The notes: generated by a model not told the origin, from the sequence alone. A stretch of 64,000 nt of DNA from Candidatus Methanomethylophilaceae archaeon (GCA_944320495.1 CALUHR010000008.1:1-64000), one strand, 5' to 3'. Shown: positions 6,453 through 64,000, counted from the first letter of the stretch. Made by a program: numbers and translations.

Positions 6453-6806
6453 ATGGCGACTAATCGCAGGGCGAACGTTACGGATCTGGAGCTCATGAGA
6501 GGGGTGGTCCATCAGATCTGGAATCAGGGGGAGGTCATGGAGTCGGACCTCTATCATCTGGTCGGGAACAGGGGCCGCATCCCTCCGATCCTCGATTCCA
6601 TGTCCGCACACGGGCTCCTGTCGACGAGGATCCGCGAATCCGGCCAGAGGGTCCCGCTATATTCCTACACGGACAAGGGCAGGCTGTACTGCATGTGCTG
6701 GCTGCTGGCAGAGGACCTCAGGCGGATTGAAGGGGAGGCCGATCTCGACGACGGCGAGTTCACGGAGATTTACGGGATCCTCGGACGGAGGTACGGCTCG
6801 GAACGA
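6453..6806 (+). CDS. Small winged-helix DNA-binding protein (paralog 2), ends at CGA
   Basis: ESDLYHLV...ILDSM..HGLL..GQRVPLYSYTDKGR; first in-frame CGA 6804-6806; ORF track runs on to 6965 through intergenic-looking sequence. Confidence 0.65.
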
Positions 6807-6980
6807 ACGCCCTCAACAAGTGATATATACCGAGAGGGCATCCACCCACTCACGGAGTTCAGAGGTATCTTCGGATGCATCTGCCGTGGGGGGAGTTGCT
6901 CCTCCAGGACACACGGGGGCGATGGTCGGACGTGTGTGATCGCGGTTCCATTCTATGATTTGTGATTGGTTCAGCTAAGC

Positions 6981-6988
6981 TTATATAC
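6981..6988 (+). promoter_or_regulatory. Archaeal TATA box of the rps19e operon
   Basis: TTATATAC in an AT-rich patch about 70 nt before the ATG; SD-like GAGGT before the start. Confidence 0.5.
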
Positions 6989-7055
6989 TAGTCCTTCTAT
7001 CCACGCGCCCGTAGCCGTCCTGCGACTAGATTGCGGGGCGGTGTGAGGTATCGAT

Positions 7056-7484
7056 ATGGTTACCGTCTACGACGTTCCCGCCGAGGCACTCATACTCAAG
7101 ACGGCCCAGAAGCTCAAGGAGAACCCCAACATCGTTCCCCCTGAGTGGGCCGAGTTCGTGAAGACCGGCAGGCATACCGAGAGGGCCCCGTCCCAGGACG
7201 ACTGGTGGTACACTAGGGCTGCCTCCATCATGAGGAAGCTGTACGTCAAGGGACCGATGGGATCCTCCAAGCTCGCAGCCGAGTACGGCGGATTCGCCGA
7301 CAGGGGCTCCATGCCCAACAAGGCAGTCAAGGGAAGCCGCAACATCGCAAGGAAATGCATGATGCAGCTCGAGGCGGCCGGCTACCTGGTCTCCAAGGAC
7401 AAGGAGGGTCGCGCCATCAGCCCCGCGGGGCAGTCTCTTCTGGACAACACCGCGAAAGAGGTCTATGACGAGATGAGGGCCTGA
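7056..7484 (+). CDS. rps19e: 30S ribosomal protein S19e
   Basis: TVYDVPA...PEWAEFVKTG..ER.P..DWWY.RAASI.RKLY. Confidence 0.97.
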   Translation: MVTVYDVPAEALILKTAQKLKENPNIVPPEWAEFVKTGRHTERAPSQDDWWYTRAASIMRKLYVKGPMGSSKLAAEYGGFADRGSMPNKAVKGSRNIARKCMMQLEAAGYLVSKDKEGRAISPAGQSLLDNTAKEVYDEMRA

Positions 7485-7496
7485 GGAGGCATCGGC

Positions 7497-7826
7497 ATGG
7501 AAGACCCCGAACTGGAAGCGATCAGACAGAGAAGGATGGCCGAGATGCAGCAGCAGGCCCAGAACCAGGCCGCTCAGCAGGAGCAGGCCCAGAGGCTCGA
7601 GGCCCAGAAGCAGGGCGTCCTCAGGCAGATCCTGACTTCGGAGGCGCGCGACAGGCTCGCCAACATCAGGCTCGCCAACCCGCAGATGGCGGAATCTGTC
7701 GAGAATCAGCTCATACAGCTTGCCCAGAGCGGCAGACTGAGGGGTGTCATCGATGACGCCATGCTGAAGAACATCCTGGTCCAGGTCTCCCCGCAGCGCA
7801 GGGAGATCACCATAGAGAGGAGATAA
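7497..7826 (+). CDS. PDCD5-like DNA-binding protein
   Basis: [13 protein letters not shown]...[15 protein letters not shown]; conserved position after rps19e. Confidence 0.92.
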
Positions 7827-7828
7827 TC

Positions 7829-7984
7829 ATGTCTAGCACAAAGGCCCCCGCAATGAAACAGAGGCTGAACAAGAAGGTCAAGCAGAACCGCCGTGTCCCG
7901 GCATGGGTCATGATCAGGACCAACAGGCAGTTCCTCCGCCACCCCAAGAGAAGGTCGTGGCGCATGAGCAAGATCAAGGAGTGA
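7829..7984 (+). CDS. rpl39e: 50S ribosomal protein L39e (absent from ORF track)
   Basis: Manual translation [51 protein letters not shown], 51 aa. Confidence 0.95.
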
Positions 7985-7989
7985 TGACG

Positions 7990-8253
7990 ATGGCAGATGA
8001 GATTGAGAGGATCATGGTCATCCCGCTCAGGGCGACCAAGCAGGCTCCCCGTACCAGGAGGGCCAAGCGTGCCGTTAAGGAGGTCAGGGAGACCGTCATG
8101 AGGCACATGAGGACGTCCGAGGAGAACGTCTGGATCGACGCCAGCGTCAACGAGAAGCTGTGGGAGAACGGAATCCGCAACCCTCCCTCCAAGATCACCG
8201 TCAAGGCCGTCAAGTTCGAGGACGGTCTCGTCGAGGTCTCCCTCGCGGAGTGA
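7990..8253 (+). CDS. rpl31e: 50S ribosomal protein L31e
   Basis: ERIMVIPLR...RAKRAVK...IDASVNEKLWENGIRNPPSKITV. Confidence 0.96.
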   Translation: MADEIERIMVIPLRATKQAPRTRRAKRAVKEVRETVMRHMRTSEENVWIDASVNEKLWENGIRNPPSKITVKAVKFEDGLVEVSLAE

Positions 8254-8258
8254 TCCAA

Positions 8259-8918
8259 ATGATGAGGTTCTCGAGTTACGGAGGCAGTCCGAACATAGCC
8301 GTCTTCGCCACGGCGAGCGAGAACCTCGCCTTTACCGCCGCCGACGCCTCCCCCGAGTTCGAGAGGACTCTCGGGGAGGCGCTCGGCGTCGATGTCATCA
8401 AGGTGTTCGTCGCCGGGTCCCACGTGGTCGGATCGCTTATCGCGATGAACTCCAACGGCGCAGTCGTCACCAACATGGCGGACGACGACGAGATGGCCGC
8501 CATCGAGGCGCACATCCCCTGCATGAGGCTGGACGACCAGCTCAACGCGGCCGGGAACAACATCCTGGTCAACGACCACGGGGCGATCGTCAGCCCGGAG
8601 TACTCCGAGGCGACCGCCAGGGCCATCGGGGAGGCGCTCGGCGTCGAGGCCGTTCGCTCCTCCATAGGAGGCATCAACACCGTCGGATCCGCGTGCAGGG
8701 TCACCAACAAGGGGTGCGCCTGCCACATGGACGCCACCGACGAGGAGATCGCGCTGATCAAGGACGTCCTCGGGGTGGAGTGCATACGCACCACCGTCAA
8801 CCACGGCGTCAGGTCCGTCGGAGCCGGCATCATCGCCAACTCCAAGGGTGCCATCGTGGGCGACCAGACCACGCCCATCGAGATGGGGAAGATCGAGGAC
8901 GCGCTCGTCCTCTACTGA
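8259..8918 (+). CDS. eif6: Translation initiation factor aIF-6
   Basis: NIAVFA...GSLIAMNSNG...AAGNNILVNDHGAIV...TTPIE; conserved operon position. Confidence 0.95.
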   Translation: MMRFSSYGGSPNIAVFATASENLAFTAADASPEFERTLGEALGVDVIKVFVAGSHVVGSLIAMNSNGAVVTNMADDDEMAAIEAHIPCMRLDDQLNAAGNNILVNDHGAIVSPEYSEATARAIGEALGVEAVRSSIGGINTVGSACRVTNKGCACHMDATDEEIALIKDVLGVECIRTTVNHGVRSVGAGIIANSKGAIVGDQTTPIEMGKIEDALVLY

Positions 8919-9609
8919 TGCGGAAGGGGCATCTCTCCCCGATGCACTGCGGATTCCCCGCTGAGAAGAGGCATCCCACCGACGAAGGCACGGTCATTCC
9001 CGCATCCAGCGCATCGTCGATGTACTTTGCAGCGGCGATGATGGCGAGATATCCGTCGCGCTTGCAGCATCTGGGTCCGGCGAAGGACCCGATGGCCGCG
9101 AGGCATTCCGAGGTCAGGGTGTTGCATTGGCCCCACGACTCCCCCGACATGGGGGAGGATCCCGTGATTATGCTGAAGGCGATGCCGCAGCTGATTGCCG
9201 CCCCGCATGCCCCCCACAGTCCGCATGCGCCTCCCGGCACCTGCCCACCGCGACGGGACATCTCCCTCAGCGCAGCGGGCAGATCGATGTCGTTGCCTGA
9301 GTTACGGTACGCGGCCAGGATGGAGGATCCGACGAACACGTGGTGCTCTGGTCCATGCATGTGCACCCCAGGCAGGAGCATCAGGTCGGTGAGGATGACG
9401 GACGGATCCAGCGAGGTGGAGGCGAGGCATGAGGCCTCGATCATGGAAAGATCCCCTCTGTGACATCCGTCGCATACGAAGTGCCCCGCCTCGCATTCGG
9501 CGTTGGACATGAACTCTTTATGGCAGATGGAGCAGGTCATCGGACGCTGCCCCTCCAGATATCTGAGCGGTCTTCCGCAGATCATGCATCCCGAGACATA
9601 CTCAACCAT
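8905..9609 (-). CDS. Cys-rich DUF5714-like protein, ends at CGA
   Basis: CMICG, CSIC, C..GHFVCDGC, MHGPEHH, GPRCCKRD, C-terminal C.GERCPF; CGA 8905-8907; ORF track 8830-9672. Confidence 0.75.
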
Positions 9610-9713
9610 GGTCTGGAATGTCGGTCCCGTCTTTAACATGCTGACATCCGACGTACTGCTCCGACAGGGCATTTGTGTGCAGGTTTTTCTATGACGAATG
9701 GAATCCAGAACAC

Positions 9714-10838
9714 ATGGGCAAGACTCTGGTCCTGGTCGTCGACAGGGACGACGACTTCGGTGTCAAGGGAAAGGTCAACACACCCGTCGTCGGTGTGCAG
9801 AACTGCCTCGATGCCGCAACCTCGTTCGGCATCGCCGATCCGGAGGATTCGGACCTCAACGCCCTCTATGCGGCCATAAGCGTCTGCCTCGAGCTCCAGG
9901 AGGACGGCCACGAGGCTGATGTCGCTCTCATCTGCGGCGACGAGAAGGTGGGCCACCGCTCCGACCTGGCACTGGTCGCCCAGCTGTCCGAGGTTCTCGA
10001 GCAGATAGAGCCTGACAGCGTGGTCCTGGTTGGGGACGGCGCCGAGGACGAGTACATCTACCCCATCATTTCGTCCCGCGCTCACGTGGATTCGGTCCGC
10101 AAGGTATACGTCAAGCAGGCCCCGGGACTCGAAGGCACGTTCTACATCATCACCAAGATGCTGTCGGACCCGGACAAGCGCAAGCGCTTCCTGGTCCCGC
10201 TCGGCGTCGTCATCGCCATGCTGGCGGTCTTCTTCCTCCTGCCGAGACTGATCCTCTTCGGCATCGACGGCGACACGAACCAGCTGGCCGCCATGTCGGG
10301 GCCCGCCGCACTGCTGTTCGTGGGTCTGATCCTGATATTCTATGGGTACAACACGATGCAGCGTCTGCAGGACCTGCGGACGGTCATAATGTCGTCGCTG
10401 GTCGGTAGGACGACCTCGATGATCTTCCTGCTGATATCCATCTCCGTGGTTCTGATCATGGCGATCTATTCCATCATGGAGATAGGTGACCTCTATCTGA
10501 GGAACAACTGGCTGCGCGGCATCTATTTCATTTCCGCCATGGTCTGGCCCATGATCATAGCTCTCGAGCTCTACCAGGTCGGCGTCGTCATCGAGAGACT
10601 GATGGCGAAGAAGGAGGTCGGGCTCTCGATCATATTCAGCTGCCTCGGTCTCGCCAGCCTGGGTCTGGTCGTGTTCGGTGTCCTGGACATCATGATGTCC
10701 TACATGGGCATCGGTTACGGGATGAACATCGGCGTAGTCGAGGTCATCGGAGGAATCGCGGTCTCGATAGTCAGCAACTTCCTGAAGGGAAGGGCGAAGG
10801 ATGCCTATGCGGAGGCCGTCCCGGATGAGGTTCTCCGA
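9714..10838 (+). CDS. DUF373-family archaeal membrane protein, ends at CGA
   Basis: LVLVVDRDDD.G.K...DPEDSDLNA...VGDGAEDE; CGA 10836-10838; ORF track to 10949. Confidence 0.85.
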
Positions 10839-11499
10839 TTGGGAGCCACTGTACGGGGCGATACTCGCCGACATGGGATACTCCCGCGAAGGCGACGAGC
10901 TGACCGTCCGTGTCCTCAAGGCCGTCACGGTGAACTGCGATCTGGTTGATCCGGACGATCTCACCGGCACCTTCGGCGATTCCGCCACCGTGTTCGGGGA
11001 CGCGCCATGCCTCGAGGAGGACATCGCCGCCGAACCTCCGGAGGGAGGACTGTTCGCATCCGGATCGAGCGTCAGGAGGCTGCTCGCGCTGGGGATCGTC
11101 CCAGATGCGGTCGTCACCGATCTGGACGGGGACATCCCGTCGCAACTGGAGGCCAGCTCCCGCGGGGCAGTGACATTCGTTCACGCCCATGGCGACAACG
11201 CCGATGCCGTGAGGATGTGGGCCGGAAGGTTCGAGGGGCCGTTGGTGCTCACCACCCAGTCCGTCCCGGAGAGGACCGTGTCGGACTTCGGCGGGTTCAC
11301 CGACGGGGACAGGGCGGTCTGCATCGCCCAGGAGATGGGATGCCGCCGGGTGACCCTGTCGGGATTCGATTTCGATCATCCGATGCCCAAGGAGGGCACC
11401 GACCCGGATGTGAAGCTCAGGAAGCTCTCGTGGGCAAGACGCATCATCTCGTCGCTGGACGGCCTAGAGGTCCGCATGGCCGGCGGCAGGGCGCTTCGA
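10825..11499 (+). CDS. mptE: 6-hydroxymethyl-7,8-dihydropterin pyrophosphokinase MptE-like (DUF115), ends at CGA
   Basis: WEPLY..IL.DMGY, VVTDLDG, HAHGDN, FGGFTDGDRA, GFDF, K.RKL.WA; CGA 11497-11499; ORF track runs to 12549. Confidence 0.8.
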
Positions 11500-11566
11500 G
11501 CACCGTGTCGTCCGTCCCTTCCGCTATTTTATAGGATGAGGGCATCATGCCGTTCGAGGCAATCCG

Positions 11567-13168: not shown

Positions 13169-13182
13169 GGGGGTGAACGAGG

Positions 13183-14130
13183 ATGATGGAGATTTACGAG
13201 ATGAGGGAGGGGCGCCCGCTAAGGACCGACTCCTTCCACGATGACGTCTGGATCAACCTCGTGGCGCCCACGGCGGAGGAGATCGAGGAGGTTCTCTCGT
13301 TCCTCAAGCTGGACCGCGAGGCCATAACTTCAGCTCTGGATGACGAAGAGGGTTCCAGGACCGAGGTTTCCCAGGACTACACCCTGATCCTCGTCGACGT
13401 GCCTACGAGGGAGTGGAGGAACAGCCGCGAGGAGTTCACCACGTACCCCCTGTCGATCACGGTCACGGACCGCGCCATAGTCACGGTCTGCCTGCAGGAG
13501 GTCTTCGCCCTCGCGAACATCGCCGCGGGCAAGAGCAAGAGCAAGAGCGTCTTCGACGTCACCAACCGCGCCAGGTTCGTCCTTCAGATACTGTTCAGAA
13601 TCGCGATTAACTATCAGACCGACCTCAAGTACATCGAGGTGAAGAGGACCGCCATCGAGGAGGCCCTCCGCAGGACCACCCGCAGGGACGACCTGTTCGA
13701 GCTTCACGAGCTCGAGTCCAACCTGGTCTACTTCAAGACGTCGCTCAGCGTGAACGCGTCCATCATCGAGAGGATGAGCAAGCAGTCGCGCTTCGTCTCC
13801 ACACCGGAGGACCGCGACCTCATGGACGACGTGATAGTCGAGACCAACCAGGCCCTGGAGATGACGATGACGTACAGCCAGATCATCAAGGGTACGCGTC
13901 AGCTCGCGGAGGCCGATCTAAACAACTCCCTTTCGAACGTCATGAAGTTCCTGACGTCCATCACACTCATCATAGCGATACCCACGATGCTGGCCAGCTT
14001 CTACGGAATGAACGTTAGGCTGCCGGGGGAGGACTCGCCGTACGCATATCTGGCCCTGTTCGGGGCGATGATTGCGCTGTGCGCGCTGTCCATATGGGGA
14101 CTCAAGAGGAAGGGCCTATGGCGCCGATAA
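13183..14130 (+). CDS. corA: CorA-family Mg2+/Co2+ transporter
   Basis: WINLVAPT.EE, YGMN signature; ends CGC CGA TAA. Confidence 0.92.
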   Translation: MMEIYEMREGRPLRTDSFHDDVWINLVAPTAEEIEEVLSFLKLDREAITSALDDEEGSRTEVSQDYTLILVDVPTREWRNSREEFTTYPLSITVTDRAIVTVCLQEVFALANIAAGKSKSKSVFDVTNRARFVLQILFRIAINYQTDLKYIEVKRTAIEEALRRTTRRDDLFELHELESNLVYFKTSLSVNASIIERMSKQSRFVSTPEDRDLMDDVIVETNQALEMTMTYSQIIKGTRQLAEADLNNSLSNVMKFLTSITLIIAIPTMLASFYGMNVRLPGEDSPYAYLALFGAMIALCALSIWGLKRKGLWRR

Positions 14131-15101: not shown

Positions 15102-15103
15102 GC

Positions 15104-15410
15104 GCCTGGCCACAGGGGTTGACCCGGCATCCCGAACCAAGTTTGCCACTTCGCTCCTCGACCCTGCGATCCCTCAAACGTCGGTAGTCCAGAGTAAGGC
15201 TGCTCCCGTCAGGACCTGACCCGGTTCCCCCAGTTGATGCGTGAACGGCTTCCCTCCGGAAGCCTTCGTCGCAAACTCCGACTCTGTGGGACAAGATTTC
15301 ATTGTCGCTAGGTGGGCTTGATTCGATCAGCTGGGCCGTCCCCTGCTGTCACCCCCGCGTGTTGACGATTTCGGGTATAGGGCACGCCAAGCGCCCCGGT
15401 CAAGCCAGAC
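15104..15410 (-). ncRNA. ffs: Archaeal SRP (7S) RNA
   Basis: About 307 nt; 5' GTCTGGC pairs with 3' GCCAGGC; Alu-like 5' domain (..CCCTATACCCGAAATCG..ACGCGGGGG); helix 6 GGCTTCC-GGAG-GGAAGCC; helix 8 TCAGGTCC-TGAC-GGGAGCAG. Confidence 0.9.
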
Positions 15411-15430
15411 GTACCCCGATGGTCGCCCTT

Positions 15431-15438: not shown

Positions 15439-15530
15439 TCAATTTCCGTCTTCGACTCAGATTCCTTTAAGTATGTGTTCACCATCGAGGGATTAGCGTG
15501 CTATATGATAGCACGGTACACGGTGAGAAC

Positions 15531-15668
15531 ATGGAGATACTAGGCCTTTCGGACCCATGGATAATAGGCGGCTACGCGCTCAGCATAATCTGCGTCGTGT
15601 TCTGCTGCGCCTATGCCCTGATCAAAGGCAGAGGAGGCTCCGAAGAGGAGGATGAGGGCGATGAGCGA
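15531..15668 (+). CDS. Symporter small accessory membrane peptide (45 aa), ends at CGA
   Basis: MEILGLSDPWIIGGYALSIICVVFCCAYALIKG + acidic tail, directly before an SSS gene; ATGAGCGA overlap; ORF track runs to 15977. Confidence 0.7.
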
Positions 15669-17447: not shown

Positions 17448-17768
17448 GTGGCGCTGTGTGCAATCATGACGATAAAAGACGTAGCGAGCGTTACCGCACT
17501 GGAAGAGAAGCATATGATCTCTATCCTCCTCTTCCTTTCCACCCATGGCCCCAGCAGGAAGATTGACATCTACGACGGGGTCTCATCCAATCCCAGAATG
17601 CCTGACAAGCTCAACATCCTGGAGGGAATGGGTCTGATCACCCAGGAGATCGATTCCGTGACCAGATCCACCATCGTTTCCCTGACCGAACCCGGGGAGC
17701 AGATTGCGGGGATGCTCGTGGCCATCGATTGCCGCATAAAGGAGCTAACCACGGCGCGAGCCGATTAA
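17448..17768 (+). CDS. Small winged-helix protein
   Basis: ILLFL..HGP.RKIDIY..VS....MPDKL..LE.MGLI...VSLTEPG; ends GCG CGA GCC GAT TAA; start uncertain. Confidence 0.7.
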   Translation: MALCAIMTIKDVASVTALEEKHMISILLFLSTHGPSRKIDIYDGVSSNPRMPDKLNILEGMGLITQEIDSVTRSTIVSLTEPGEQIAGMLVAIDCRIKELTTARAD

Positions 17769-20528: not shown

Positions 20529-20532
20529 TACC

Positions 20533-25121: not shown

Positions 25122-26077
25122 AGGCTCCGAGGGTCAGGGGGATCGCCTCCTCCGATGTGAAGAACAAGTTCACAGGCGCGGCAGGCAAGATGCGCGACGC
25201 CGTCTCCTCGTCCAGGAAGTCCATCCTGGACTCCAACTTCAAGCATGAGCGCGCCATAAGGATCGAGAAGCGTCACGAGCTCTCGGTCATGTGGTTCTCA
25301 TTCATCATCATCGTCGTCTCCAGCGCCGTGTTCTTCATCATCGGCAGGATCGTAAACGACGGCGACTGGTCCTACATGGACTTCTTCTACAACATGGGCT
25401 GCAACATCCTGGCCATGTTCATCGTCGTGCTCTGCTTGGACACGCTGGTCAACCGCAACCGCGACGACCGTCTGCAGAGGGGGGAGGCGTCCAAGATCCT
25501 CAGGTATAACCGCCTCATCAGCCCGGAGATCGACATGTATCTGGTCAGGAAGAACATGGTCATCACCCCCAACGGCAAGACCGTGAGGAAGTTCCAGGTC
25601 GATGCCAAGTTCACCGTCAGGGACATGCGCGACATGTACGGCGCGTCGGATCTCGTAGCCGATGTCGGCATCTCCAAGATCAGGAGATATGCCCATTACC
25701 AGGCGGTTCTGGCGGACCACTTCGAGAAGCTCATAGAGAATGTGGACTTCGTCTTCTACCCGGAGATTGCTGACGCCGCGATGCGCTATCTCAACGCCAC
25801 CTCCTACGGCGAGGCCGCCCTCGATGCCGTGGTCAGCTACGAGGACACCCGCGCAGGGACGAAGTCGATGAGGGCTATGGTCATCCAGATGATTCGCGAA
25901 GAGCCCGAGGAGGGCCGCTTCATCGATGCAAACCCGACGATGAAGAACGTATACCTGGTGCACCAGATGATCAACGAGCAGGAGGCTGCCGTGGCCGACT
26001 ATCTCAGGATGATCAAGACCCTCCAGGAGAAGGACCCCTCGCAGTCGAAGCGTGACGACGTCATCGAGCAAGAGTGA
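25118..26077 (+). CDS. Hypothetical membrane protein (2 TM plus soluble domain)
   Basis: ATGA overlap with upstream gene, two hydrophobic segments, host-like codon use. Confidence 0.7.
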   Translation: MKAPRVRGIASSDVKNKFTGAAGKMRDAVSSSRKSILDSNFKHERAIRIEKRHELSVMWFSFIIIVVSSAVFFIIGRIVNDGDWSYMDFFYNMGCNILAMFIVVLCLDTLVNRNRDDRLQRGEASKILRYNRLISPEIDMYLVRKNMVITPNGKTVRKFQVDAKFTVRDMRDMYGASDLVADVGISKIRRYAHYQAVLADHFEKLIENVDFVFYPEIADAAMRYLNATSYGEAALDAVVSYEDTRAGTKSMRAMVIQMIREEPEEGRFIDANPTMKNVYLVHQMINEQEAAVADYLRMIKTLQEKDPSQSKRDDVIEQE

Positions 26078-26749
26078 CCACGGGACCTCGTGCGATATCC
26101 TCAGGGAATCGGGCTCTACTTCGCATCCCAGGCACATGATCATCACACCCGAGCCGACGGCATGCTCCAGGGCTTTGGCGAATGCAGGGTCGGTGTCACG
26201 GTTCGGCGTGAACAAGCACATGCCGGACATCTGAACGACGAACACGGCGAAGGCCTCGTAACCCTCCGTGACGCATTCCTCCAAGCCGCGGAGATGCTTC
26301 CTGCCGCGCTCGGTGGGGGCATCGGGGAACATGCAGACCCCGTCGGTCTCCTGCGTGACTCCCTTGACCTCGGCGAATATGCGGCGGTCTCCCGCTTCGA
26401 TGTAGAAGTCGAACCTGGAGTCCCCATGGGTGCACTCCGGGCGGACGACCGCTCCCGGACCGAACGGCTCCGTCCTGGACAGATATTCGGAGAATACCCT
26501 GTTGGGGGCCTGGGAATCGATATTGATAAGCAGATCGCCCTTCCATGCGGCCACGAGGTCGTACCCGTACCTCCTTCCCGGGCTGTCCGAAGCGGAGAGG
26601 ACTACGCGGGTACCGGGCTGGAGGATCTCCCCGCATCTGCCGGTGTTCTTGACGTGGACACAGACCTCCTCCCCGTCGATGAGGACGGTGGCGACGAACC
26701 TGTTCTCCCTGGAGACGAACTCCGCGTCCCTCGTCGTGGCGTAACGCAT
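26045..26749 (-). CDS. sfsA: SfsA-family nuclease/DNA-binding protein, ends at CGA
   Basis: RENRF, HVKNTGRC.E, SRFDFY, EVKGVT, FPDAPTERG.KHL; 234 aa to CGA 26045-26047; ORF track runs to 25298. Confidence 0.9.
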
Positions 26750-26800
26750 GAGCCAGTGAAGAATCGACACTATTAATGGGGGAGCCGTCATGGCGAGTTC

Positions 26801-27457
26801 ATGGACGGGTTCATGACGTACGAGAGGGTCAAGACTCCCAGAGGAGACAGCTTCCGCACGGTCGGGGACCAGCTCTCGGACGAGATATACGTCCTGGACA
26901 CCGAGACCACCGGTCTGGAGGGAGCCCCGAAGGATCTCGTCGTGGACATCGGGATCTGCAGGGTCTCCTTCAACGACGGCACCGTGGAGGACGTGTACTC
27001 GTCAGTGGTAGGATATGACACGTCCGAGTGGGATGACTATCTGAAGAACGCATGGATCTTCGAGAACACCGACATGACCCTCGGCATGGTAGAGGAGGCC
27101 CCTCCAGCGCTCAATATCATCGACGAGGTCCGCCGTATCCTCCGCAGGAAGCCGGTGACGTCCTACAACACGGATTATGACTTCGGCAAGTTCCTCTACG
27201 AGGAGCCCTGGGACATGCGCGGATGGTTCGTCGAATGCTATGACATCATGAAGGCGGCGACCGACGTCTGCAAGATCCCCAGCGAGTACTACGGCCGCTC
27301 GTACAAATATCCCAAGCTGGACTATGCGTATTCCAAGATCGTGGACGGCGATCCCGCGGGCATACACGGCCACCAGGATCACCGCGCGCTCTCGGATGCC
27401 AGGATGGCCTCCTACGTCATGATCGAGCTCCAGAAGGCGGGGCTCTATCATCCCCGA
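26801..27457 (+). CDS. DEDDh 3'-5' exonuclease, ends at CGA
   Basis: LDTETTG, SYNTDYD, HRALSDA; CGA 27455-27457; ORF track to 27646. Confidence 0.85.
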
Positions 27458-40010: not shown

Positions 40011-41043
40011 TGGTAGGCCTCAGCTCCCTGGCCATGTCCCACTTGTCGTGGATGATCTGGGGCGAATGCGTGGCGACGATCATCTGGATGTCGCGTACCC
40101 TGCAGATGTCGAGAAGATAGTCCCCGAGCTTCTGCTGCCAGCAGACGTGGAGGGATATCTCCGGTTCGTCGATGATGACGATGGAGCCCTGGGGGGCGTG
40201 GAAGAGCAGAGCGTAGAACATGATGAGGATCTGCTTCTCTCCTGACGAGAGCTTCTGCAGCTGGAGAACGGTGCCATTGTTCATCGCCACCCCGATCCTG
40301 CCGGTGTCCGAGACGGTTACGGACTTGTTGAGGAAAATGTCGTTGACGATGTCTTTGAAGATGATGACGGACTCGGCGAGGATGTAATCCTTCTCGACAT
40401 AGTCGGCGAGGGAGCTGGCCAGCTCCTCGTATCCCTTGCGGTCCTTGGCAATCTCGTACCTGGACGGAGGGAACTTCTTGCCTGCTGGTATGTCGGGTTC
40501 GAAACCCGCGTCCCTGATAAAGTCGAGCTTGGCCTTGAGGTCCTTGCACCAGAACTCCAGGTCGCCGTCGGACATCTCCGACACGCCCTCCCTGAGCACC
40601 GGCTCGAGCTCCCTGTGCTCCCTCGCATAGCGGATGCGGTCCGCCAGCTCCTGGGCGTACACCTCGAGGGTGGGGGCCAGATGCCCGTCGCCCCTCTTGA
40701 TGGCTAACCTCTCCGGCGGGACGTAGAGCGTCTCGACGATGGAGGCCATGTCGGAGGGAGTCAGGTCCGTGTCGACGTCGCTCTTCCTCATGAGCACGAG
40801 CATCTCACCCTGGTAGTTCTGGATGACAAGGTCCTCGTCGTCGTCGAAGAGGATGTCAAACCTGGAGAACGGGGTCCCGCGGAGGTAGTCCACATCGCCG
40901 CGGAGGGCGGCGTAGATCATCCTCATCAGAGTACTCTTCCCAAGACCATTTGGGGAGTGCAGGAACGTGAGCGGCTGACCCATATCGAGGGCGAAGTCAT
41001 ACTCGTTGAAGAGCTTCGAGACATAGACTGACTTTATCTTCAT
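40003..41043 (-). CDS. ABC/SMC-like AAA ATPase (AriA-like), ends at CGA
   Basis: SPNGLGKST, LSSGEKQ, IIDEPEISLH..WQ, ATHSP; ATGCGCGA overlap with DUF4435; ORF track runs to 39673. Confidence 0.85.
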
Positions 41044-50151: not shown

Positions 50152-51441
50152 ATGGGGGATCTCATGGTGACGGGCACGGCATTCTTCGAAGCGGCCGCCG
50201 CCTACAACGATGCACCGGTGAAGAGCGGATTGTGCTCCATATGCAAGGGCGCCCACAGGCTGTGCGGCAAGGACCGCTGCCCCCTGATGATCAAGTTCTA
50301 CTCGCAGCAGAAGACCCGGCCGCTCATAGACGCCAAGGACCTGGCCGGCTCAAGCCCACCGTCCGTCTTCGTGGGACGCTACGGATACCCGAAGGTGGAC
50401 ATCGGACCCCTGGTCCCGCCGGAGTTCGGTGACACCTCCGTAATGGGGAGACCTGAGATGTGGGTCGGGAAGTCGATAGACGAGATCGTCGACATGCGCT
50501 TCCGCCTGGTGAGGGGGAAGTACCGCATCGACGCCACCGACTTCGCGAAGTACGGGCGCATGGTGGACGCGGTCCAGGAGGTGGCGCTGACCGAGCGCCC
50601 CATAGACATAGAGACCACCTTCTCCCAGAAGCCCCGCGGCAGGGTCGTCCTGGACGATGACATCGAGCCCTTCGGTCCTTCGGCCAGGATGGAGGCCATG
50701 TCCATAGGCAACGGGAGGTTCGAGAGGAACCTGGAGAGGTCGTTCTACGACACCGACATGCGCGCCGTGGACGCCGTGGTGTCGGCGTACAGGGGAGGGA
50801 CCCTGATCTCCGAGATCCAGAAGGCCTTCTCTGTTGGAACGATGGGGACCGGCAAGCGCAGGCGCTTCGTCCCCACCAGATGGAGCATCACCGCCGTCGA
50901 CGACATCATAGGCAAGGACCTGCTGAAGACCACCAGGTGGAACCCGACCATCGACGACTTCAGGCTCTACCTCTGGGAGGAGCTGGACAACAGGTGGGCC
51001 ATCCTCCTGATGCCCTGCACCTGGAGGTTCGAGCTCATAGAGGCGTGGTATCCCAACACCACCTGGAACCCCACCGGGAAGACCATAGACGTCATCCACG
51101 ACAGCGAGTTCTTCGACGGCAGGACGGAGTACGCCCACATCGGAGGATGCTACTACGCGTCAAGGATGGCGGTCAACGAGCTGCTCATTAAAGAGGGGAG
51201 GACCGCAGGTGCCGTCATCATGAGGGAGGCCCATCCCGGATACGTTATGCCCGTCGGGGTCTGGAACGTCAGGGAGAACGTCCGCGCCGCTCTGAAGACG
51301 GAGCCCCTCCATTTCGAGACCTACGACCAGGCGATGACCCGTGTGGAGCAGATGATGGACATCAAGCGCGACGGATGGATCGCCAACTCCGACGTGATGA
51401 GGGACTGGCTCGTCCAGAGGAGGATTGAGGACTATTACCGA
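50152..51441 (+). CDS. nreA: Archaeal DNA repair protein NreA, ends at CGA
   Basis: N-terminal CSICKG..LCG..CP, GSSPPSVFVGRYGYPKV, VPTRWSITAVDD, GVWNVRE; C-terminal QRRIEDYY (PIP-like) then CGA; ORF track runs to 52473. Confidence 0.9.
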
Positions 51442-52228
51442 CACGACCCTCGGCGACTTCTCCGGAGAGAGGCTGGAATGGGACGGTCCTTTCCGGATAG
51501 TGGAGTGCGGCAGGGCGCTGTCCCCATCCGGGCTGGACGAGATGGACTACGCCCTGAACCCCTACGGGGGATGCGAGCACGGCTGCATCTACTGCTACGC
51601 CCCGGGACACACCCATTCGGATCTCGCGGGATGGAGGGTCGTCCGCGTCAAGAGGAACGTGATCGACAGGCTGTCCAGGGAGCTGCCCTTCGCGGACGGT
51701 ATAATCGGCATAGGCACGGTCACCGATCCGTACCAGGCCGCAGAGGGCAGGTTCCGCCTGACCAGGGGATGCCTGGAGGTCCTGGCCTCGAGGGGCCGGA
51801 GGATCCACATCCACACCAAATCGGACCTCGTCCTCCGCGACATCGACATCCTGTCGGGGATGGACTGCGTCGTCGGGATCACGTTCACCGGCGTCGATCC
51901 GAGGGTCTCGAAGATGACCGAGCCAGGCGCCCCGCTGCCCGAGGCGAGGCTCCGGGCGATCACCGGCCTCTTGGACGGCGGGGTGCGGACGTACGCCCTG
52001 GTCGCCCCCACCATGTCGACCGCCGAGGGGCACGAGGCGGAGATCATCGATGCCCTCCGTTCCACGGGGGTCCGCCGCGTATACGTGGAACCCCTCAACC
52101 TCAGGCTTGTGGACACCACGCGTCTCGACAGGATGGGCATAACCCCGTCCCCCAAGGCTGTCGCGGAGATGGCCAGACTCTGCCGCGAGGCTGGCATCCT
52201 GGGCATGGGCGTGGTTCGTCGATATTGA
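51425..52228 (+). CDS. Radical SAM protein (SPL/DNA-repair-photolyase-like)
   Basis: LNPYGGCEHGCIYCYA, IGT.TDPYQ, HTKSDLVLRD; ends CGT CGA TAT TGA; start uncertain (TTG 51425). Confidence 0.85.
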   Translation: MRTITDTTLGDFSGERLEWDGPFRIVECGRALSPSGLDEMDYALNPYGGCEHGCIYCYAPGHTHSDLAGWRVVRVKRNVIDRLSRELPFADGIIGIGTVTDPYQAAEGRFRLTRGCLEVLASRGRRIHIHTKSDLVLRDIDILSGMDCVVGITFTGVDPRVSKMTEPGAPLPEARLRAITGLLDGGVRTYALVAPTMSTAEGHEAEIIDALRSTGVRRVYVEPLNLRLVDTTRLDRMGITPSPKAVAEMARLCREAGILGMGVVRRY

Positions 52229-53038: not shown

Positions 53039-53671
53039 TCGTTCGCTTGGCGGCATGATGAAGTGCGTCCAGAGGTGGGGCTCATAGACGGGCTTCTCGG
53101 TTCCCGCCATCCTTCCGGCGTTGATGCACTTCAGGAGCCACGCCATGTTCTGGGCGAGCGTGCGCATGGTCTGCAGCCCCTCCTCGTCCCTGCGGACGTC
53201 TTCGGGGGTGAAGCCATGGACCTGGTTCCAGTATTGTGATGGGACCAGCGGCATGTTGCAGATCGTGAAGTACTTGTTCAGGCGGTCGAAGGCCGCGGAA
53301 GCCCCGCCCCTGCGGCAGGACACGACAGATGCTCCGAGCTTGCCGGCCATCCTCGCCGCATTGGAATAGAAGAACCTGTCCGCGAATGCGCAGACCTGAC
53401 CAGACGGGCCAGCGTAGTACACAGGCGAGCCCAGAACGATTGCGTCGAACTCGTCCAGCCTCTCCGCCAGGACGTTGACGTCGTCCTTGATCGAGCACCT
53501 GCCCTTCTTGGCGCAGTATCCGCAGTCCCTGCATCCAGCGGTGTCGTTCTTGATGTGATAAATCTCCGACTCGACGCCCTCCTTGGTGAGTGTTTCCGCA
53601 ATCTCCTTCAGGGCGGTGTAGGTGCAGCCGTGCTCCTTGGGGCTGCCGTTGATAAGTAGAACCTTTGCCAT
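53039..53671 (-). CDS. Flavodoxin-family (iron-sulfur flavoprotein/FMN reductase), ends at CGA
   Basis: INGSP...GCT, CRDC..C..C, GSPVYY, RRGG..AAF, YWN..HG; ORF track 52850-53740. Confidence 0.88.
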
Positions 53672-53767
53672 AGTATCGCTCCGATTGGGCCGAATGGCCA
53701 TACTGCGTCCCCAAATCGAGGACTGATAAGAACCCGCCATCCGAAGACAGCGAGGTCTGGTTTGTTA

Positions 53768-54313: not shown

Positions 54314-54316
54314 GTG

Positions 54317-55330: not shown

Positions 55331-55840
55331 TTGTCGAAGGAACTTATCGCATTCTACTCAAGGGCCGACGAGAACTACTTCGCCGGTTCCTACAGATACG
55401 TGGACGTCGGGAACACCGAGATTGTCGCCGGAATGCTCCAGGAGCTCACCGGGGCCGACATTTTCAAGATTGAGCAGGCGAAGCCCTACTCCAAGGACTA
55501 CAACACCTGCATCGAGGAGGCCAAGGAGCACCAGAGGAGGGACGCGCACCCCGAGCTGAAGTCCTGCCCGAAGAGCATCGACGGGTACGACACGATCTAC
55601 CTAGGCTACCCGAACTACTGGGGGACGATGCCCATGGCCGTCTTCACCTTCCTCGAGAGGTACGACTTCACAGGCAAGACCATCCGACCCTTCTGCACTA
55701 ACGAGGGCAGCGGTCTCGGCAGTAGCGTCTCCGACATCAGTAGCCTCTGCCCCGGGGCCAACATCGAGAAAGGCCTGGCCATCACAGGCGGACAGGCCAG
55801 GGGTTCCCGCCCCTCCCTCGAGCGCTGGCTCAAAGGATGA
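55331..55840 (+). CDS. Flavodoxin (carries the only internal CGA seen; possibly truncated)
   Basis: AFYSRA.EN, GNTE..A, YLGYPNYWG.MP, GKTI(R=CGA)PFCTNEGSG; TTG start. Confidence 0.85.
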   Translation: MSKELIAFYSRADENYFAGSYRYVDVGNTEIVAGMLQELTGADIFKIEQAKPYSKDYNTCIEEAKEHQRRDAHPELKSCPKSIDGYDTIYLGYPNYWGTMPMAVFTFLERYDFTGKTIRPFCTNEGSGLGSSVSDISSLCPGANIEKGLAITGGQARGSRPSLERWLKG

Positions 55841-57604: not shown

Positions 57605-57626
57605 TTCCGTAAAAACGCCCACATCC

Positions 57627-57654
57627 GGGGGCGGGGGTCTTGCCCCCTCGCCCC
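57627..57654 (+). terminator. GC-rich hairpin after the thermosome gene
   Basis: GGGGGCGGGGG-tcttg-CCCCCTCGCCCC followed by a pyrimidine-rich tract. Confidence 0.45.
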
Positions 57655-57696
57655 AAACCTTCCTTCATTTTATACAGAGAATGAGATGCGTTCCCC

Positions 57697-58014: not shown

Positions 58015-58129
58015 GGAGGCCCTGCCCTTCCGTACGCAACGGTTTTCACAACGGTCCACGATTATTGAGACGATAGGATTCCCGCGGCACGGGCATTGTC
58101 GAGGGGATCCGGACCGAGGGGGTTAGGAC

Positions 58130-59233: not shown

Positions 59234-59309
59234 CCCCTGGGACCCGAACACGGGCCCTCGACAATCCTTTATAACGGCGGAGCCGATGCGTCTGCGGGAT
59301 GGATGCACA

Positions 59310-60083
59310 ATGCGCGCAGCGCTATACGCCAGGGTCTCGACGGACGACCAGGCGGTCGAGGGTTTCTCGCTCGACGCCCAGGTCAAGCGCCTCGAGGCCT
59401 ATTGCAGGGTCCGCGGCTGGGAGGTCGGCGGGATCTACAGGGACGAGGGGTTCTCCGGCAGGAACACCAAGCGTCCGGAGTACGAGAGGATGATGCGCGA
59501 GTCCGACTCGTGGGACGTCCTCCTCGTTCTGAAGATGGACCGTATCCACAGGAACAGCGTCAACTTCGCCCGCATGATGGACGACCTGCGCGACATGGGC
59601 AAGGAGTTCAACTCGGTCCAGGAGAAGTTCGACACCACCACCGCCATGGGACGGTTCGTCATGGACATCATGCAGAGGATCGCCCAGCTGGAGAGCGAGC
59701 AGATCGGCGAGAGGACGTTCATGGGCATGGAGTTCAAGGCCCGCAACGGCACCGGAAACCTCGGCTCCGGCCACCCGTACGGATACGTGTACACCGAGCA
59801 CGGCCTGGAGGTCGTGAAGGATGAGGCGCATACGGTGCGCGCGATCTACAACATGTACGTAAGGGGCTCCACCATGGAGGACATCGCCGGATTCCTCAAC
59901 AGCGCCGAGATCCCCGCCAAGAAGGGCGGCAAGTGGAACAGGCAGTCCGTCTGCAACATCCTCCACAACCCGCTCTACGTGGGATACTCGGAGTGGAACG
60001 GCATCCTGCGCAAGGGCGAGCAGCAGCCCATCGTCGAGATGGCGGTCTTCGAGAAGGTCAACGGGCCGTTGGAGATCCAGCGA
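59310..60083 (+). CDS. Serine recombinase (resolvase + recombinase domain), ends at CGA
   Basis: YARVST.DQ, DEG.SG....RP, KMDRIHRN, AQLESEQI.ER; CGATG overlap with next gene; ORF track to 60104. Confidence 0.9.
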
Positions 60084-60940
60084 TGCGTGCGGCCATATAC
60101 GTGAGGGTCTCCACCGAGGAGCAGGCCGCCGAGGGGTACTCCATCGAGGCCCAGAAGGAGCTACTCCAGGACTACTGCATCGTCGAGGGGTGGGAGGTCG
60201 CCGGCGTCTACGAGGACGACGGATTCTCCGGAAGGAACGACAAGCGTCCCGCCTACCGCAAGATGATGTCGGAGATGGACCTTTGGGATGTGGTCGTCGT
60301 CATCAAGATGGACCGTATCCACAGGAACAGCCGCAACTTCATGTCCATGATGGACACGCTCACCAAGCATGGGAAGATGTTCGTGTCCTCGTCCGAAGCA
60401 TTGGATACGACCAACGCCCTCGGGAGGTTCGTGGTCGACATGATACAGAGGCTCGCCCAGCTGGAGAGCGAGCAGATCGGCGAGAGGACGTACATGGGCA
60501 TGCGCGAGAAGGCCGAGACCCTCGAGGCCGTCCAATCCGGTAAGAGGACCATGGGCTTCACGCCGCCGTTCGGCTACCGTCTTGAGGACGGGGCACTCGT
60601 CGAGGACGAGGGGGAGCTCCCGATCGTCAGGCGCATGTTCGCCGAATATGCCGAGGGCAGGCCCATGGATGCGATATGCTTCGGCCTCAACCGCGACGGG
60701 ATACTCACCCGCAGGGGCAATCCCTGGAACAAGCGCAACCTCGCCAACATCCTCCACAACCCCGTCTACGCCGGGTACATGAGATGGGAGGACATCCTCA
60801 TCCGCCACGATGCGGAGACGGTCCTCTCGCCGGAGCAGTTCAACGGCGTGCAGGAGCGCATCGCCTCCAGGATCAGGGACCCCTCCAAGAGGGGCGTGAA
60901 TCTCCTTCCAACAGAGTCAGATTATGCGACGGGGATGCGA
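60083..60940 (+). CDS. Serine recombinase paralog 2, ends at CGA
   Basis: YVRVSTEEQ, DDG.SG, KMDRIHRN, PPFGY, IL.NP.YAG; CGA 60938-60940; ORF track to TAG at 60958. Confidence 0.9.
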
Positions 60941-61156
60941 ACCGGACGAGCCGGTTAGTTAACGGAGAACGTTCGGTGCAAATATCCCATATTATAAATA
61001 ATGTATCCGAAAAAGTCCATTTGTTGACGTCTCAATCTCCATTGTCTGGCACATGCCTCTGGATGTCTATGCCTGTACGCATGCGCCACATATGGTATTA
61101 AATAGTGATTACGTCGAATCATTCCCCGGGTCCTAGACCCAATAGGAGGAAAACAA

Positions 61157-61681
61157 ATGACTGACGAATGCAAAACCATCGACCCGACGGCCTTCGGCCT
61201 GTTCTTCGTGGCCGTTGTGTCCCTTCCACTCGCCCTGGCCGGATTCTTCGGCTACATGGGCAACGAGTGGAACGCGACCATCATGGCTGGCGTCGGATCT
61301 CTGCTGATGGTAAACGGATTCTTCATTCTTCTCGCAGCGCTGTACGCCTACAAAGCCGGCAGCAACTTCGGATTCGTCGTATTCGGCCTCGTCTCCATGG
61401 GAGTGTTCTATGCCGGATACGGAGGGGGAGACCTCTGGATCAACGTCACCTTCGGAATCATATTCCTGATCTGTCTGATCTGGTCCTACCGCGCAAAGAC
61501 GCTGAAGACCCTGACGTTCATCCTGCTGACCACCGCCCTTGTGTTCATCGCCAACGGCTGTGTTATCGAGACCGGTGCCGAGTGGTCCTGGCTGTTCCTC
61601 GGAATCGCCGCCATCCTCAACTTCATCCTCACTCTGTACCTGGCTTTCGCGCTCGCCGACGAGCACATCCGCTGTGTCTGA
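61157..61681 (+). CDS. GPR1/FUN34/YaaH-family (acetate uptake) channel
   Basis: N-terminal DPTAFGLF motif, about 6 TM. Confidence 0.7.
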   Translation: MTDECKTIDPTAFGLFFVAVVSLPLALAGFFGYMGNEWNATIMAGVGSLLMVNGFFILLAALYAYKAGSNFGFVVFGLVSMGVFYAGYGGGDLWINVTFGIIFLICLIWSYRAKTLKTLTFILLTTALVFIANGCVIETGAEWSWLFLGIAAILNFILTLYLAFALADEHIRCV

Positions 61682-61755
61682 TCGGAGGACCTCAAACCCC
61701 TTACCGGCCTCTGGCCGGGACATCTTTATTTAAGCGTTCTCAATCACCGACCCTC

Positions 61756-61851
61756 ATGAAGAAGGAAATGAAGATCAAGATCGGTGCCTACTTCATGGTC
61801 ATCATCATGGTCGTCGTCGTTGTAACGGCAGCCGCCTCCGCCCTGATCTGA
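61756..61851 (+). CDS. 31-aa single-TM peptide, putative
   Basis: MKKEMKIKIGAYFMVIIMVVVVVTAAASALI; TGATG overlap with the SDR start. Confidence 0.5.
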   Translation: MKKEMKIKIGAYFMVIIMVVVVVTAAASALI

Positions 61852-62603
61852 TGATCGCCGTCGTCACCGGGGCATCGTCGGGCATCGGGGCCGAGTTCTG
61901 CAGGGCCCTGGACGGGGAGGGGCTGGATTCCATCTGGATCATCGCCAGGAGAGCCGACAGGCTGGAGGCCCTGGCATCCGAGCTCTCCACCCCCTGCGTC
62001 GTAATCCACGCGGATCTCACCGACAGGAAGCAGCTGTCCGAGCTCGTCGGACGCATAGGATCCTCCGGCGAGAGGGTCGACTACCTGGTGAACTGCGCCG
62101 GAGTCGGCAGGTTCGGAGAGACCTGGGAGCTCTCATCGGAGGAGACGCTGTCCATGATCGACCTGAACGTCTCCGCCCTCACGGAGATGTGCCGCGGATG
62201 CATCCCCCGCATGGAATCCGGATCCCGCATCATCAACGTCTGCTCCGCATCCGCGTATCTTCCGCTGGAGCGCCTCAACGTGTATTCCGCCACCAAGGCG
62301 TACGTGCGCGCGTTCTGCAACGCCCTCGGAAGGGAGCTAAAGACCAGAGGCATCACGGTATTGGAGGTCTCCCCTGGATGGGTGGAGACAGATTTCATCC
62401 CGCTCTCCAGGTCCACAGGCGACGTTCCCGAGACTGTCTTCAAGCACACCGTTAAGGCTCGCGACGTCGCCGTGAGGGCCATCGCCGACGCCAAGCACGG
62501 GAGGAAGCGCTCGATATGCGGCGCGTACAACAGGCTCCAGGTCTTCGTGTGCACCCACATGCCTCGCATGGCATCATACGTCTGGGGAAGGTCCCTGCTG
62601 TGA
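61851..62603 (+). CDS. Short-chain dehydrogenase/reductase
   Basis: TGASSGIG, NCAG, YSATK. Confidence 0.93.
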   Translation: MIAVVTGASSGIGAEFCRALDGEGLDSIWIIARRADRLEALASELSTPCVVIHADLTDRKQLSELVGRIGSSGERVDYLVNCAGVGRFGETWELSSEETLSMIDLNVSALTEMCRGCIPRMESGSRIINVCSASAYLPLERLNVYSATKAYVRAFCNALGRELKTRGITVLEVSPGWVETDFIPLSRSTGDVPETVFKHTVKARDVAVRAIADAKHGRKRSICGAYNRLQVFVCTHMPRMASYVWGRSLL

Positions 62604-63205
62604 CGACGGTCCTCCGCGAGTTCAGGGAGGGGGACTGCAAACCCATATCCGCGATAATGTGCGACGTCTGGTCCATGGTGAGCTACGGCGCCGATGTCGC
62701 CATGCCCGGGTCGAGGATGTACTGCTGCCAATGCGTCCTCGGGTCGTCGTTCATCCGTGTGGCCGAGGTCGACGGGAGGATCGTCGGATGCGTCGGGGCC
62801 AGATACGGGAACGAGAGGGTCGATGCACCCTGGGCCGAGAGGATGCTGCGGCAAGAGAGGGATTCCTTGGCGAACTCCGAGGACGGGATGCGGATGATCG
62901 CCGAGTTCGAGTCCTACGATTCCATAGACAGGGACCTCGGCATCAGTACCGAGATCGACACCGATGCGGAGCTCACCATACTCATCCTTTCCGAGGGTTG
63001 CAGGGGACTCGGACTGGGCAGGATGATGTTCAACGCCGCCTGCGATTACCTTCGCTCCAAGGGCGCCGGGAGCATGATGCTGTACACCGACACCGACTGC
63101 AACACAGGGTTCTACGATGCCCTCGGCGCAGAGCGCGTGGCAACCTCAGGAATGATGTGCCTGGGGGAGCCGCTCGGAATGTTCCTTTACAGATATCCGC
63201 TGCGA
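62600..63205 (+). CDS. GNAT-family N-acetyltransferase, ends at CGA
   Basis: GTG start in GTGA overlap; VAEVDGRIVG, RGLGLG, FYDALG; CGA 63203-63205; ORF track to 63379. Confidence 0.82.
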
Positions 63206-63209
63206 GGAG

Positions 63210-64000
63210 TCATCGGAATCCGAACAGAGCCTTCGCATTGTCGACATGCTCCTCCGCATCGAGATGGAACGGACACCTCGAGGTGCACCTGCCACAGTGC
63301 AGACAGTCGGAAGCGTGCTTCGACAGAGCCCTGTAGTGCTCCCAGGCCATCTCGTCGCCAACGGCGAACAAGTCGCTGAACTTGTTGACCTTCCCGATGT
63401 CGATGCCTGCGGGGCACGGGAGGCAGTGGTTACAGTAGACGCACTGGTCCTACATGTCCGCCGCCGTCAGGCCGCCGATGAACGAGTAGTCCCTCTCCTC
63501 CCTAGAAGCGTCTAGGTACGAGAGCATAGCCTCGAGCTGTCCGACTGAGCCTATTCCCGGGACCACGGACACTGCCCCGGGGCGGTCCAGCGCGTACTGA
63601 ATGCACTGCGCCGGGGTCATCGCCCTCCCGAACGGGGAGGTCTCGGCATCCATCAAGATGCCTCCCCCATAGGGCTTCATCACGACTATCCCGATCCCCC
63701 TGCGCTCGCAGTCGCGGTAGAGCTCCAGCCTCTCGGGGTCCATCACGAGGCCGTTGTCCCCGGCCACGAAGTCATAGGTGGGATTGAGGCTGAGCATGAA
63801 GTCGTCGACAACCGTTTCCTCGATGAAGCGCCTGCATATCTCTGGGGTGTGAGACGTGAACCCGATGTTGTCCACGCGCCCCTCGTCCTTCCATTCGACC
63901 AGCATGTCGTACAGCCCATCGGACATGATGCGCTCGTAGTCCTGGGCCTCGTCGACGCAGTGGAAGAGCAGCAGGTCGGCGTGATCGAGACCGTACTTCC
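63210..64000 (-). CDS. Aldo/keto reductase with 4Fe-4S tail and in-frame TAG (5'-truncated by window)
   Basis: Paralog of the 58130 gene; ADM-TAG(63450-63452)-DQCVYCNHCLPC continues in frame to CGA TGA (63210-63215). Confidence 0.85.

Follow-up and report, generated by a model that had tools for sequence, protein, structure and literature searches.

Does CGA, an arginine codon, close genes in a gut methanogen? The question was raised by the first 64,000 nucleotides (hereafter the window; C8:1-64000) of contig CALUHR010000008.1 in the genome of a Candidatus Methanomethylophilaceae archaeon (GCA_944320495.1; G000 below), in which a first-pass annotation had noticed genes that run past their expected ends under genetic code table 11 and meet an in-frame CGA at about the place where they ought to stop. 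The genome amounts to 1.77 Mb in 14 contigs with a GC content of 61%, and carries ~1,700 genes of a free-living cellular organism. We are highly confident that CGA is a terminator at the genomic level. As for the mechanism, we assign a probability of roughly 0.68 to the proposal, drawn from sequence data, that this genome and its genus use CGA as a fourth stop codon of lesser strength, at which the archaeal release factor aRF1 would terminate against a weakened tRNA-Arg(UCG), with feedback on aRF1 itself.

CGA at gene ends across the genome and in the window

A codon log-odds score was trained genome-wide, and 1185 coding segments were chosen for a high score over their last 100 codons. The first stop encountered was TGA in 886, CGA in 250, TAA in 36, and TAG in 13 of these segments, giving CGA a share of ~21%; in all, the genome has ~400 CGA stop sites. 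The mean score between CGA and the next standard stop was -0.43, against -0.44 after TGA. When 11 other rare codons were treated as stops for control, the downstream sequence was still coding in 60-92% of the cases (mean +0.58 to +1.09), compared with 4% for CGA. A greedy longest-open-reading-frame codon count was unusable because of antisense open reading frames (ORFs) at 60% GC, and codons were counted by flank scoring instead. A single CGA (55685) was found among ~19,400 confidently coding codons on C8, as opposed to 43.6 per 1000 in the two other frames, so that the near-absence of internal CGA first noticed by eye held up; the relative G052 had no CGA among ~20,000 such codons. Altogether, CGA has gone from conserved sense positions and stands at gene ends that align with the stops of orthologues, with non-coding sequence beyond, as expected of a sense codon turned into a stop. 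A codon unassigned in the manner of CGG in Mycoplasma capricolum would be unused at gene ends as well, whereas CGA closes 250 of the 1185 genes.

The sequence context suggests that CGA behaves as a weak stop tuned by its surroundings. Genome-wide, the base following the codon (position +4) is T in 60% of CGA stops compared with 30% of TGA stops, and C follows 14% of the CGA stops. From the lowest to the highest of four bins of codon bias, the T share after CGA was 31, 47, 60, and 64%, while the CGA share of stops in the same bins was 40, 36, 28, and 13%, making CGA rarer in strongly codon-biased genes. Backup stops are in excess, as a standard stop lies within five codons past the CGA in 21.6% of the cases versus 13.1% for TGA stops (p = 0.0013). 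An overlap with the ATG of the next gene (CGATG) was found in 26% of CGA stops and 7% of TGA stops. The earlier view that the flanking bases share no motif stood for the window but failed genome-wide, where the +4 T bias is strong.

In the window, all 20 coordinates singled out by the first-pass annotation (15 putative stops, four CGAs beside TGA or TAA, and the internal 55685) turned out to be CGA in frame with the upstream ORF; for minus-strand sites, the single number it gave is the lowest plus-strand coordinate of the codon. The genes do run on under table 11, as had been claimed; the stretch to the next TGA or TAA is 6-516 codons and mostly antisense across their neighbors. The coding score was ~+0.3 to +1.3 before the CGAs and mostly negative after them. 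With CGA taken as a stop, the window tiles into ~63 genes, ended by 42 TGA, 18 CGA (~30%), and 3 TAA, and the Pfam domains DUF5714, Nre_C, SfsA, DUF373, AddA-like nuclease, CorA, and both resolvases finish shortly before a CGA.

The nre gene (50152-51441, +) matches Nre_C up to profile position 110/110 at amino acid 428, and its CGA (51439-51441) is at codon 430, where orthologues have their stops (see below). The DUF5714 gene (8905-9672, -) matches its domain to 172/173 at amino acid 250, with CGA (8905-8907) as codon 256. In sfsA (26045-26791, -), the SfsA domain, covered to 137/138, ends at amino acid 228, and CGA (26045-26047) is codon 249. The DUF373 gene (9675-10838, +) carries a domain complete to 335/335 that ends before the CGA at 10836-10838. 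In the AddA-like helicase-nuclease gene (30072-33005, -), the last domain ends at amino acid 965 and CGA (30072-30074) is codon 978; read-through would add 456 codons with a score of -1.0. CGA also closes an RNase_T-type exonuclease gene (26801-27457, +; CGA at 27455-27457), an AAA/ABC ATPase gene (40003-41043, -; 40003-40005), and the genes for an FMN reductase (53039-53740, -; 53039-53041) and a GNAT protein (62516-63205, +; 63203-63205). For the MptE-like gene (10801-11499, +; 11497-11499), the read-through comprises 349 codons with a score of -1.28, and for the PadR-like gene (6453-6806, +; 6804-6806) the score drops over the 52 codons to the next TGA or TAA. The CGAs of a small acidic ORF (15498-15668, +; 15666-15668) and of an ORF with no Pfam match (35734-36285, +; 36283-36285) agree with the gene tiling. 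Frameshift or indel errors might have lowered the coding score, but this was rejected: the domains are whole, and the genes that follow begin at or beside the CGA.

The remaining two stops belong to tandem serine recombinase genes (59286-60940, +; Resolvase and Recombinase domains). The CGA of the first (60081-60083, +) shares its A with the ATG of the second (60083-60940, +) in a CGATG overlap, and the second, domain-bearing gene ends at the CGA at 60938-60940. The pair lies near an AddAB-like pair and an AAA ATPase gene, which may form a mobile or defense island, and the CGA stops of the recombinase island are without the genome-wide +4 T bias. At four other gene ends, CGA has a standard stop as its neighbor. 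At the end of corA (14125-14127, +; CorA to 292/292 at amino acid 309), CGA is followed at once by TAA, and which of the two codons terminates is indistinguishable. CGA precedes TGA by two codons at 17757-17759 (+) and by one codon at 52220-52222 (+), in frame at the end of a radical-SAM gene, and is followed at once by TGA at 63213-63215 (-), in frame at the end of an aldo-keto reductase/Fe-S gene. The window also contains an archaeal signal recognition particle RNA (15103-15411, -; Rfam RF01857, 181.6 bits).

Orthologous gene ends in related genomes

Searches with the Nre protein placed the genome in the family Methanomethylophilaceae (order Methanomassiliicoccales), as a metagenome-assembled genome (MAG) of a Methanoprimaticola-type genus. 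The closest public record is the chicken-gut-type MAG CASFYI01 (99% identity), followed by the Thermoplasmata MAGs JAUNXZ/JAUNYA (88%), the mislabelled bins CAVIUM, CAVABN, and CAVJLK (85%), Ca. Methanoprimaticola sp. MG2 (84%), a strain with a RefSeq assembly, and UBA480 (82%). In what follows, G058 is M. alvus, G065 is UBA480, G068 and G129 are both MG2, and the other G-numbers are assemblies of relatives. A sequencing-run look-up found the organism in chicken, bird, and gut metagenomes, with DNA runs from at least five studies.

At the stop column of nre, the 42 orthologous loci had TGA in 35 cases, TAA in one, and CGA in six, the six belonging to independent assemblies; two close relatives (loci L003 and L007) have TGA. 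Orthologues carry TGA, TAA, or CGA opposite the CGA stops of G000; the first-pass annotation had proposed to look for TGA or TAA there. In ~1.1 Mb of DNA from relatives, G000 CGA stops face a stop codon in 46 of 72 pairs (64%), and G000 TGA stops in 293 of 382 (77%). The suggestion that CGA replaced TGA at orthologous stops, by T>C drift in a high-GC lineage, is supported by these data.

The use of CGA stops differs greatly within the genus. Genes ending at CGA were most frequent in G063 (16/76) and G064 (16/62), and less so in MG2 (10/101), G052 (6/96), G031 (3/73), G124 (2/76), G131 (1/62), G016 (1/38), and G123 (0/62). The CGA-ended share is 0-10% in some species of the genus and 21-26% in the sub-clade of G000. 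Outside this genus, in M. alvus among others, CGA is used as a sense codon very seldom (0 to 1.07 per 1000). Among the CGA codons of other genera, 6 of 62 lie within five codons of the true stop, compared with 1.7-2.8% for CGG, CGT, and AGA, an enrichment that hints at an ambiguity of CGA older than this genus.

That the CGAs stem from systematic T>C consensus errors at TGA, or from a mis-assembled or altered record, has a negligible chance of being correct, and nothing turned up in its favor. CGA recurs at the same orthologous stops in independent MAGs produced by other studies with other assemblers, and the same behavior of CGA in independent assemblies excludes an assembly artefact; nor could consensus errors clear CGA from sense positions. 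Among the DNA runs of the five or more studies that hold the organism, run X1, possibly the source sample itself, shows 4 differences over 20 kb and none at a CGA site. Contigs from two metatranscriptome libraries likewise read CGA: X17 record 18 covers 8905-8907 without any difference, and X15 record 15 covers 17757, differing at 17675 alone; such contigs cover some of the CGA sites, and their uncovered parts are uninformative. An enrichment of CGATC and CGATG had hinted at a methylation or sequencing-error motif of the GATC type. This candidate was rejected, as the same CGAs recur in independent Illumina MAGs and the bias is stronger in genes of stronger codon bias. No exact match of the read-through or the CGA-ended forms of the Nre and DUF373 proteins was found in the public protein collection.

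Over 7735-8401 of the window, contig depth was several-fold higher in all four runs, with shared differences at 7834, 7882, and 7913, of which T>A at 7834 makes TAG into AAG in those contigs. This segment probably attracts contigs from a related, more abundant organism.

tRNA-Arg(UCG), aRF1, and the remaining sense CGAs

The first-pass annotation had supposed that tRNA-Arg(UCG) was lost. On the contrary, G000 carries the gene (C13:413317-413390, +; locus L082:218-291), as does every relative specifically searched with a covariance model; plain BLAST matched it in 16 of 61 family genomes, missing copies that the covariance model found. The G000 tRNA keeps the Arg identity elements (G18 G19 A20, C35, and G36). 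In other genera, the anticodon arm is canonical, with C-G, U-G, or U-A at the 31-39 pair and CUUCGGA or CUUCGAA as the loop, while the arm is abnormal in every member of this genus examined. Positions 31 and 39 are mismatched as C.A in G052, G042, G031, and G016, as U.C in MG2, and as A.A in G000, G063, G064, and UBA480, with U32 and C38 in addition in G000. C33 replaces the near-universal U33 in G123, G124, and G131. A.A occurs in the very species whose CGA stops reach 21-26%, a correspondence in a small sample of related species that is a lead rather than a test.

G000 possesses one aRF1 gene (C2:85936-87165, -; locus L081:1087-2316, -). Codon 78 of this gene is CGA, at the conserved Arg of the RLK segment after the NIKS motif. 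In none of the ~65 Methanomethylophilaceae genomes examined is aRF1 free of CGA; as a rule there is a single one, and it occupies a conserved Arg somewhere from codon 9 to codon 123. The column varies by genus (9, 11, 25, 27, 50, 78, or 123), and ~38 genomes of the present genus share (G/T)CT CGA CTN at the RLK Arg, with one exception at codon 25. The background rates predict 0.04-0.44 CGA per aRF1 gene; for all of the six genera with measured rates to carry one or more by chance, the probability is ~1e-5, a figure overstated through kinship. In other families of the order, 0-5 CGAs are spread along aRF1 and CGA is an ordinary codon. As in prfB, an early in-frame copy of the factor's own (putative) stop codon is conserved among relatives. 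The conserved CGA suggests a feedback resembling that of RF2, and points to aRF1 as the factor that would terminate at CGA.

A second aRF1 copy serving CGA was sought and rejected: one gene with an eRF1_2 domain lay above the cut-off in G000, and one weak match to an eRF1-type protein is probably pelota. Residue 65 of aRF1 (G000 numbering, four past NIKS) is Met or Leu across Methanomethylophilaceae, and Arg or Asn in the other families of the order, where human eRF1 has Arg68; this sets the whole family apart at a site beside the codon-reading motif. The aRF1 of UBA480 (locus L171, G065:C53) itself ends with RPN CGA GGT CGA, the second CGA forming a backup two codons later.

Genome-wide, there were ~28 candidate sense CGAs, most of which are shadow frames and 2-3 of which are credible. 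The 103 tblastn alignments that appeared to span a CGA were set aside as an artefact of conserved neighboring-gene DNA and shadow frames. After alignments with a stop in the subject were removed, those at aRF1 R78 and flavodoxin R119 alone stayed robust. Both codons are followed by C, the least favorable base after a stop for eRF1-type factors. The latter is the internal CGA of the window (55685-55687, +), codon 119 within a Flavodoxin_4 domain (amino acids 26-167), opposite which the nearest orthologues, in G052 and G143, have AGG (Arg). At C13:194145 (-; locus L245), a CGA lies precisely at the junction of two domains, SIS (GmhA-like) and HAD (GmhB-like), that share one open frame; the arrangement can be read either as two genes, with a CGA stop and a GTG start two codons on, or as a fusion read through CGA.

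Readings of CGA and its relation to known codes

We propose that the single aRF1 would terminate at CGA in competition with the retained but presumably weakened tRNA-Arg(UCG), with a following U favoring termination and a following C favoring Arg. The tRNA would be kept because the aRF1 mRNA holds an in-frame CGA at an essential Arg (codon 78 in the RLK motif), where abundant aRF1 would cut short its own synthesis in the manner of RF2/prfB feedback. With CGA able to terminate, GC pressure would then let T>C drift convert TGA stops into CGA. More tentatively, and at somewhat less than even odds, the dual meaning may be family-wide: aRF1 would read CGA against tRNA-Arg(UCG) with the early in-frame CGA as a feedback sensor, and in one genus with a weakened tRNA, the codon would have become a context-dependent stop replacing TGA.

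Several points weigh against this proposal. Termination at CGA is deduced here from sequence, and it requires an eRF1-type factor that accepts C at the first codon position. NIKS and YxCxxxF are unchanged in aRF1, and neither there nor in the equivalent of the GTS loop was a substitution found that separates the high-CGA from the low-CGA species; G28S, in the latter, occurs in G000 and G134 alone and not in G063 or G064. A tRNA with anticodon UCG and the Arg identity elements is retained, so that some read-through is expected. The context rule for sense CGA is based on two or three sites. Finally, in G052 a GC content of 61% goes with only 6% CGA stops, and the CGA share must therefore depend on more than GC pressure.

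The unchanged codon-reading motifs of aRF1 would be at ease with an alternative in which CGA is unassigned, or 'hungry': the crippled tRNA would leave ribosomes stalled, and rescue (splitting by aPelota/ABCE1 with peptidyl-tRNA hydrolase, or codon-independent aRF1) would take place with no specific recognition of CGA. The abnormal anticodon arm in all the members of the genus and the avoidance of CGA in strongly codon-biased genes fit this explanation as well. Nevertheless, rescue would be costly for a fifth of the genes, a strong +4 U preference that rises with codon bias is typical of recognition by a release factor, and the conserved in-frame CGA sits in aRF1, not in pelota. We thus regard a hungry codon as unlikely, and favor direct termination by aRF1 because of the +4 effect, the avoidance of CGA stops in codon-biased genes, and the conserved CGA held by aRF1 itself.

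Editing of C to U in the mRNA would turn CGA into UGA, an ordinary stop. The equivalence of CGA and TGA would then need no change in aRF1, and the local context bias could be the editing motif. CGA78 of aRF1 and CGA119 of the flavodoxin would have to escape, though, and the RNA-library contigs keep CGA at 8905-8907 and 17757, a weak argument since minor variants disappear in contigs and DNA may be present in RNA libraries. We know of no mRNA C-to-U editing in archaea, and consider this explanation highly improbable. There is also very little chance that CGA is plain Arg and that the genes are translated to the next standard stop with C-terminal extensions. The presence of tRNA-Arg(UCG), the CGA at a conserved Arg in aRF1, and the one aligned with Arg in the flavodoxin would be as expected, but the extensions reach ~500 codons, often antisense through neighbors and with no coding signal, orthologues stop at the same column, and the near-total absence of CGA inside genes would be left unexplained.

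Sense-to-stop changes are, to our knowledge, established in organelles only, namely AGA/AGG in vertebrate mitochondria (NCBI table 2) and TCA in Scenedesmus mitochondria (table 22). As in those codes, an amino-acid codon (for Arg in table 2) has left sense positions and marks gene ends. In contrast to the organelles, the present genome is a cellular one of 1.77 Mb, the codon ends not one or two genes but ~21% of them, and the cognate tRNA is kept; the putative factor is aRF1, an eRF1-type protein, and CGA and UGA differ at the first base. In bacteria, RF2 (prfB) is autoregulated through an in-frame UGA that is escaped by +1 frameshifting. The archaeal gene resembles prfB as a release-factor gene with an early in-frame putative stop codon of its own, conserved over many genomes; unlike in prfB, escape would be by read-through with tRNA-Arg(UCG) at a conserved Arg, and the position shifts between genera.

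CGG in M. capricolum, as summarized in a later article, became unassigned under AT pressure, with its tRNA lost and the codon unused (Oba et al. 1991, cited in PMC8629427). The likeness is that a rare CGN Arg codon was driven from genes together with a decoding problem; CGA differs in that hundreds of genes end with it, in a lineage under GC pressure. The first-pass annotation knew of no described CGA stop, and we found none in the literature on Methanomassiliicoccales, Methanomethylophilaceae, and Methanoprimaticola. Beyond these groups, the statement needs qualification: a CGA stop was suggested as possible for two unrelated vent archaea in a preprint of 2026. In these two hydrothermal-vent assemblies, CGA is absent from domains matched by hidden Markov models, with the remark that it 'may be a stop codon'. 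They have ~50% GC and read CGG as Trp, no tRNA(UCG) turned up in them, and the preprint presents no gene-end evidence and was unable to test the stop role (Melnykov 2026, bioRxiv 10.64898/2026.04.02.715157). Both cases concern archaea with CGA absent from domains. In G000, CGG aligns with Arg in 63% of 230 positions, comparable to other Arg codons (63-73%), and Trp is outside the six commonest partners; CGG is thus Arg, and this is not the CGG-to-Trp lineage of that preprint. Unlike the vent archaea, these unrelated gut Methanomethylophilaceae possess tRNA(UCG), and the ends of orthologues and domains support the stop.

A code with all TAG as pyrrolysine has been described in archaea of the same order, with CGA not mentioned (Kivenson et al., bioRxiv 10.1101/2024.09.30.615893). 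TAG behaves as a sense codon in the present genome too, and that change is from stop to sense, unlike the one considered here. Coding continues after 82% of first TAGs, which align with varied residues in relatives; examples in the window are at ~7813-7815, 7834-7836, and ~14016-14018, and inside 63213-63926 (-). No tRNA with a CUA anticodon was found in the genome by aragorn. The sense TAG fits the pyrrolysine, all-TAG-sense code of this order.

If the proposal is correct, CGA would be the first sense-to-stop code change outside organelles. The set of stop codons could then grow in a full-sized cellular genome, and the process would be caught under way, with 0-26% use among sister species. 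These archaea would offer a testable system for how an eRF1-type factor accepts a C-initial codon, and for whether a release factor regulates itself via a codon with both sense and stop meanings. With table 11, standard gene callers will merge or lengthen at least a fifth of the genes in the genomes of these gut methanogens. CGA-ended genes are therefore probably wrong in their annotations, pangenomes, and metaproteomic databases, for an organism widespread in poultry gut metagenomes.

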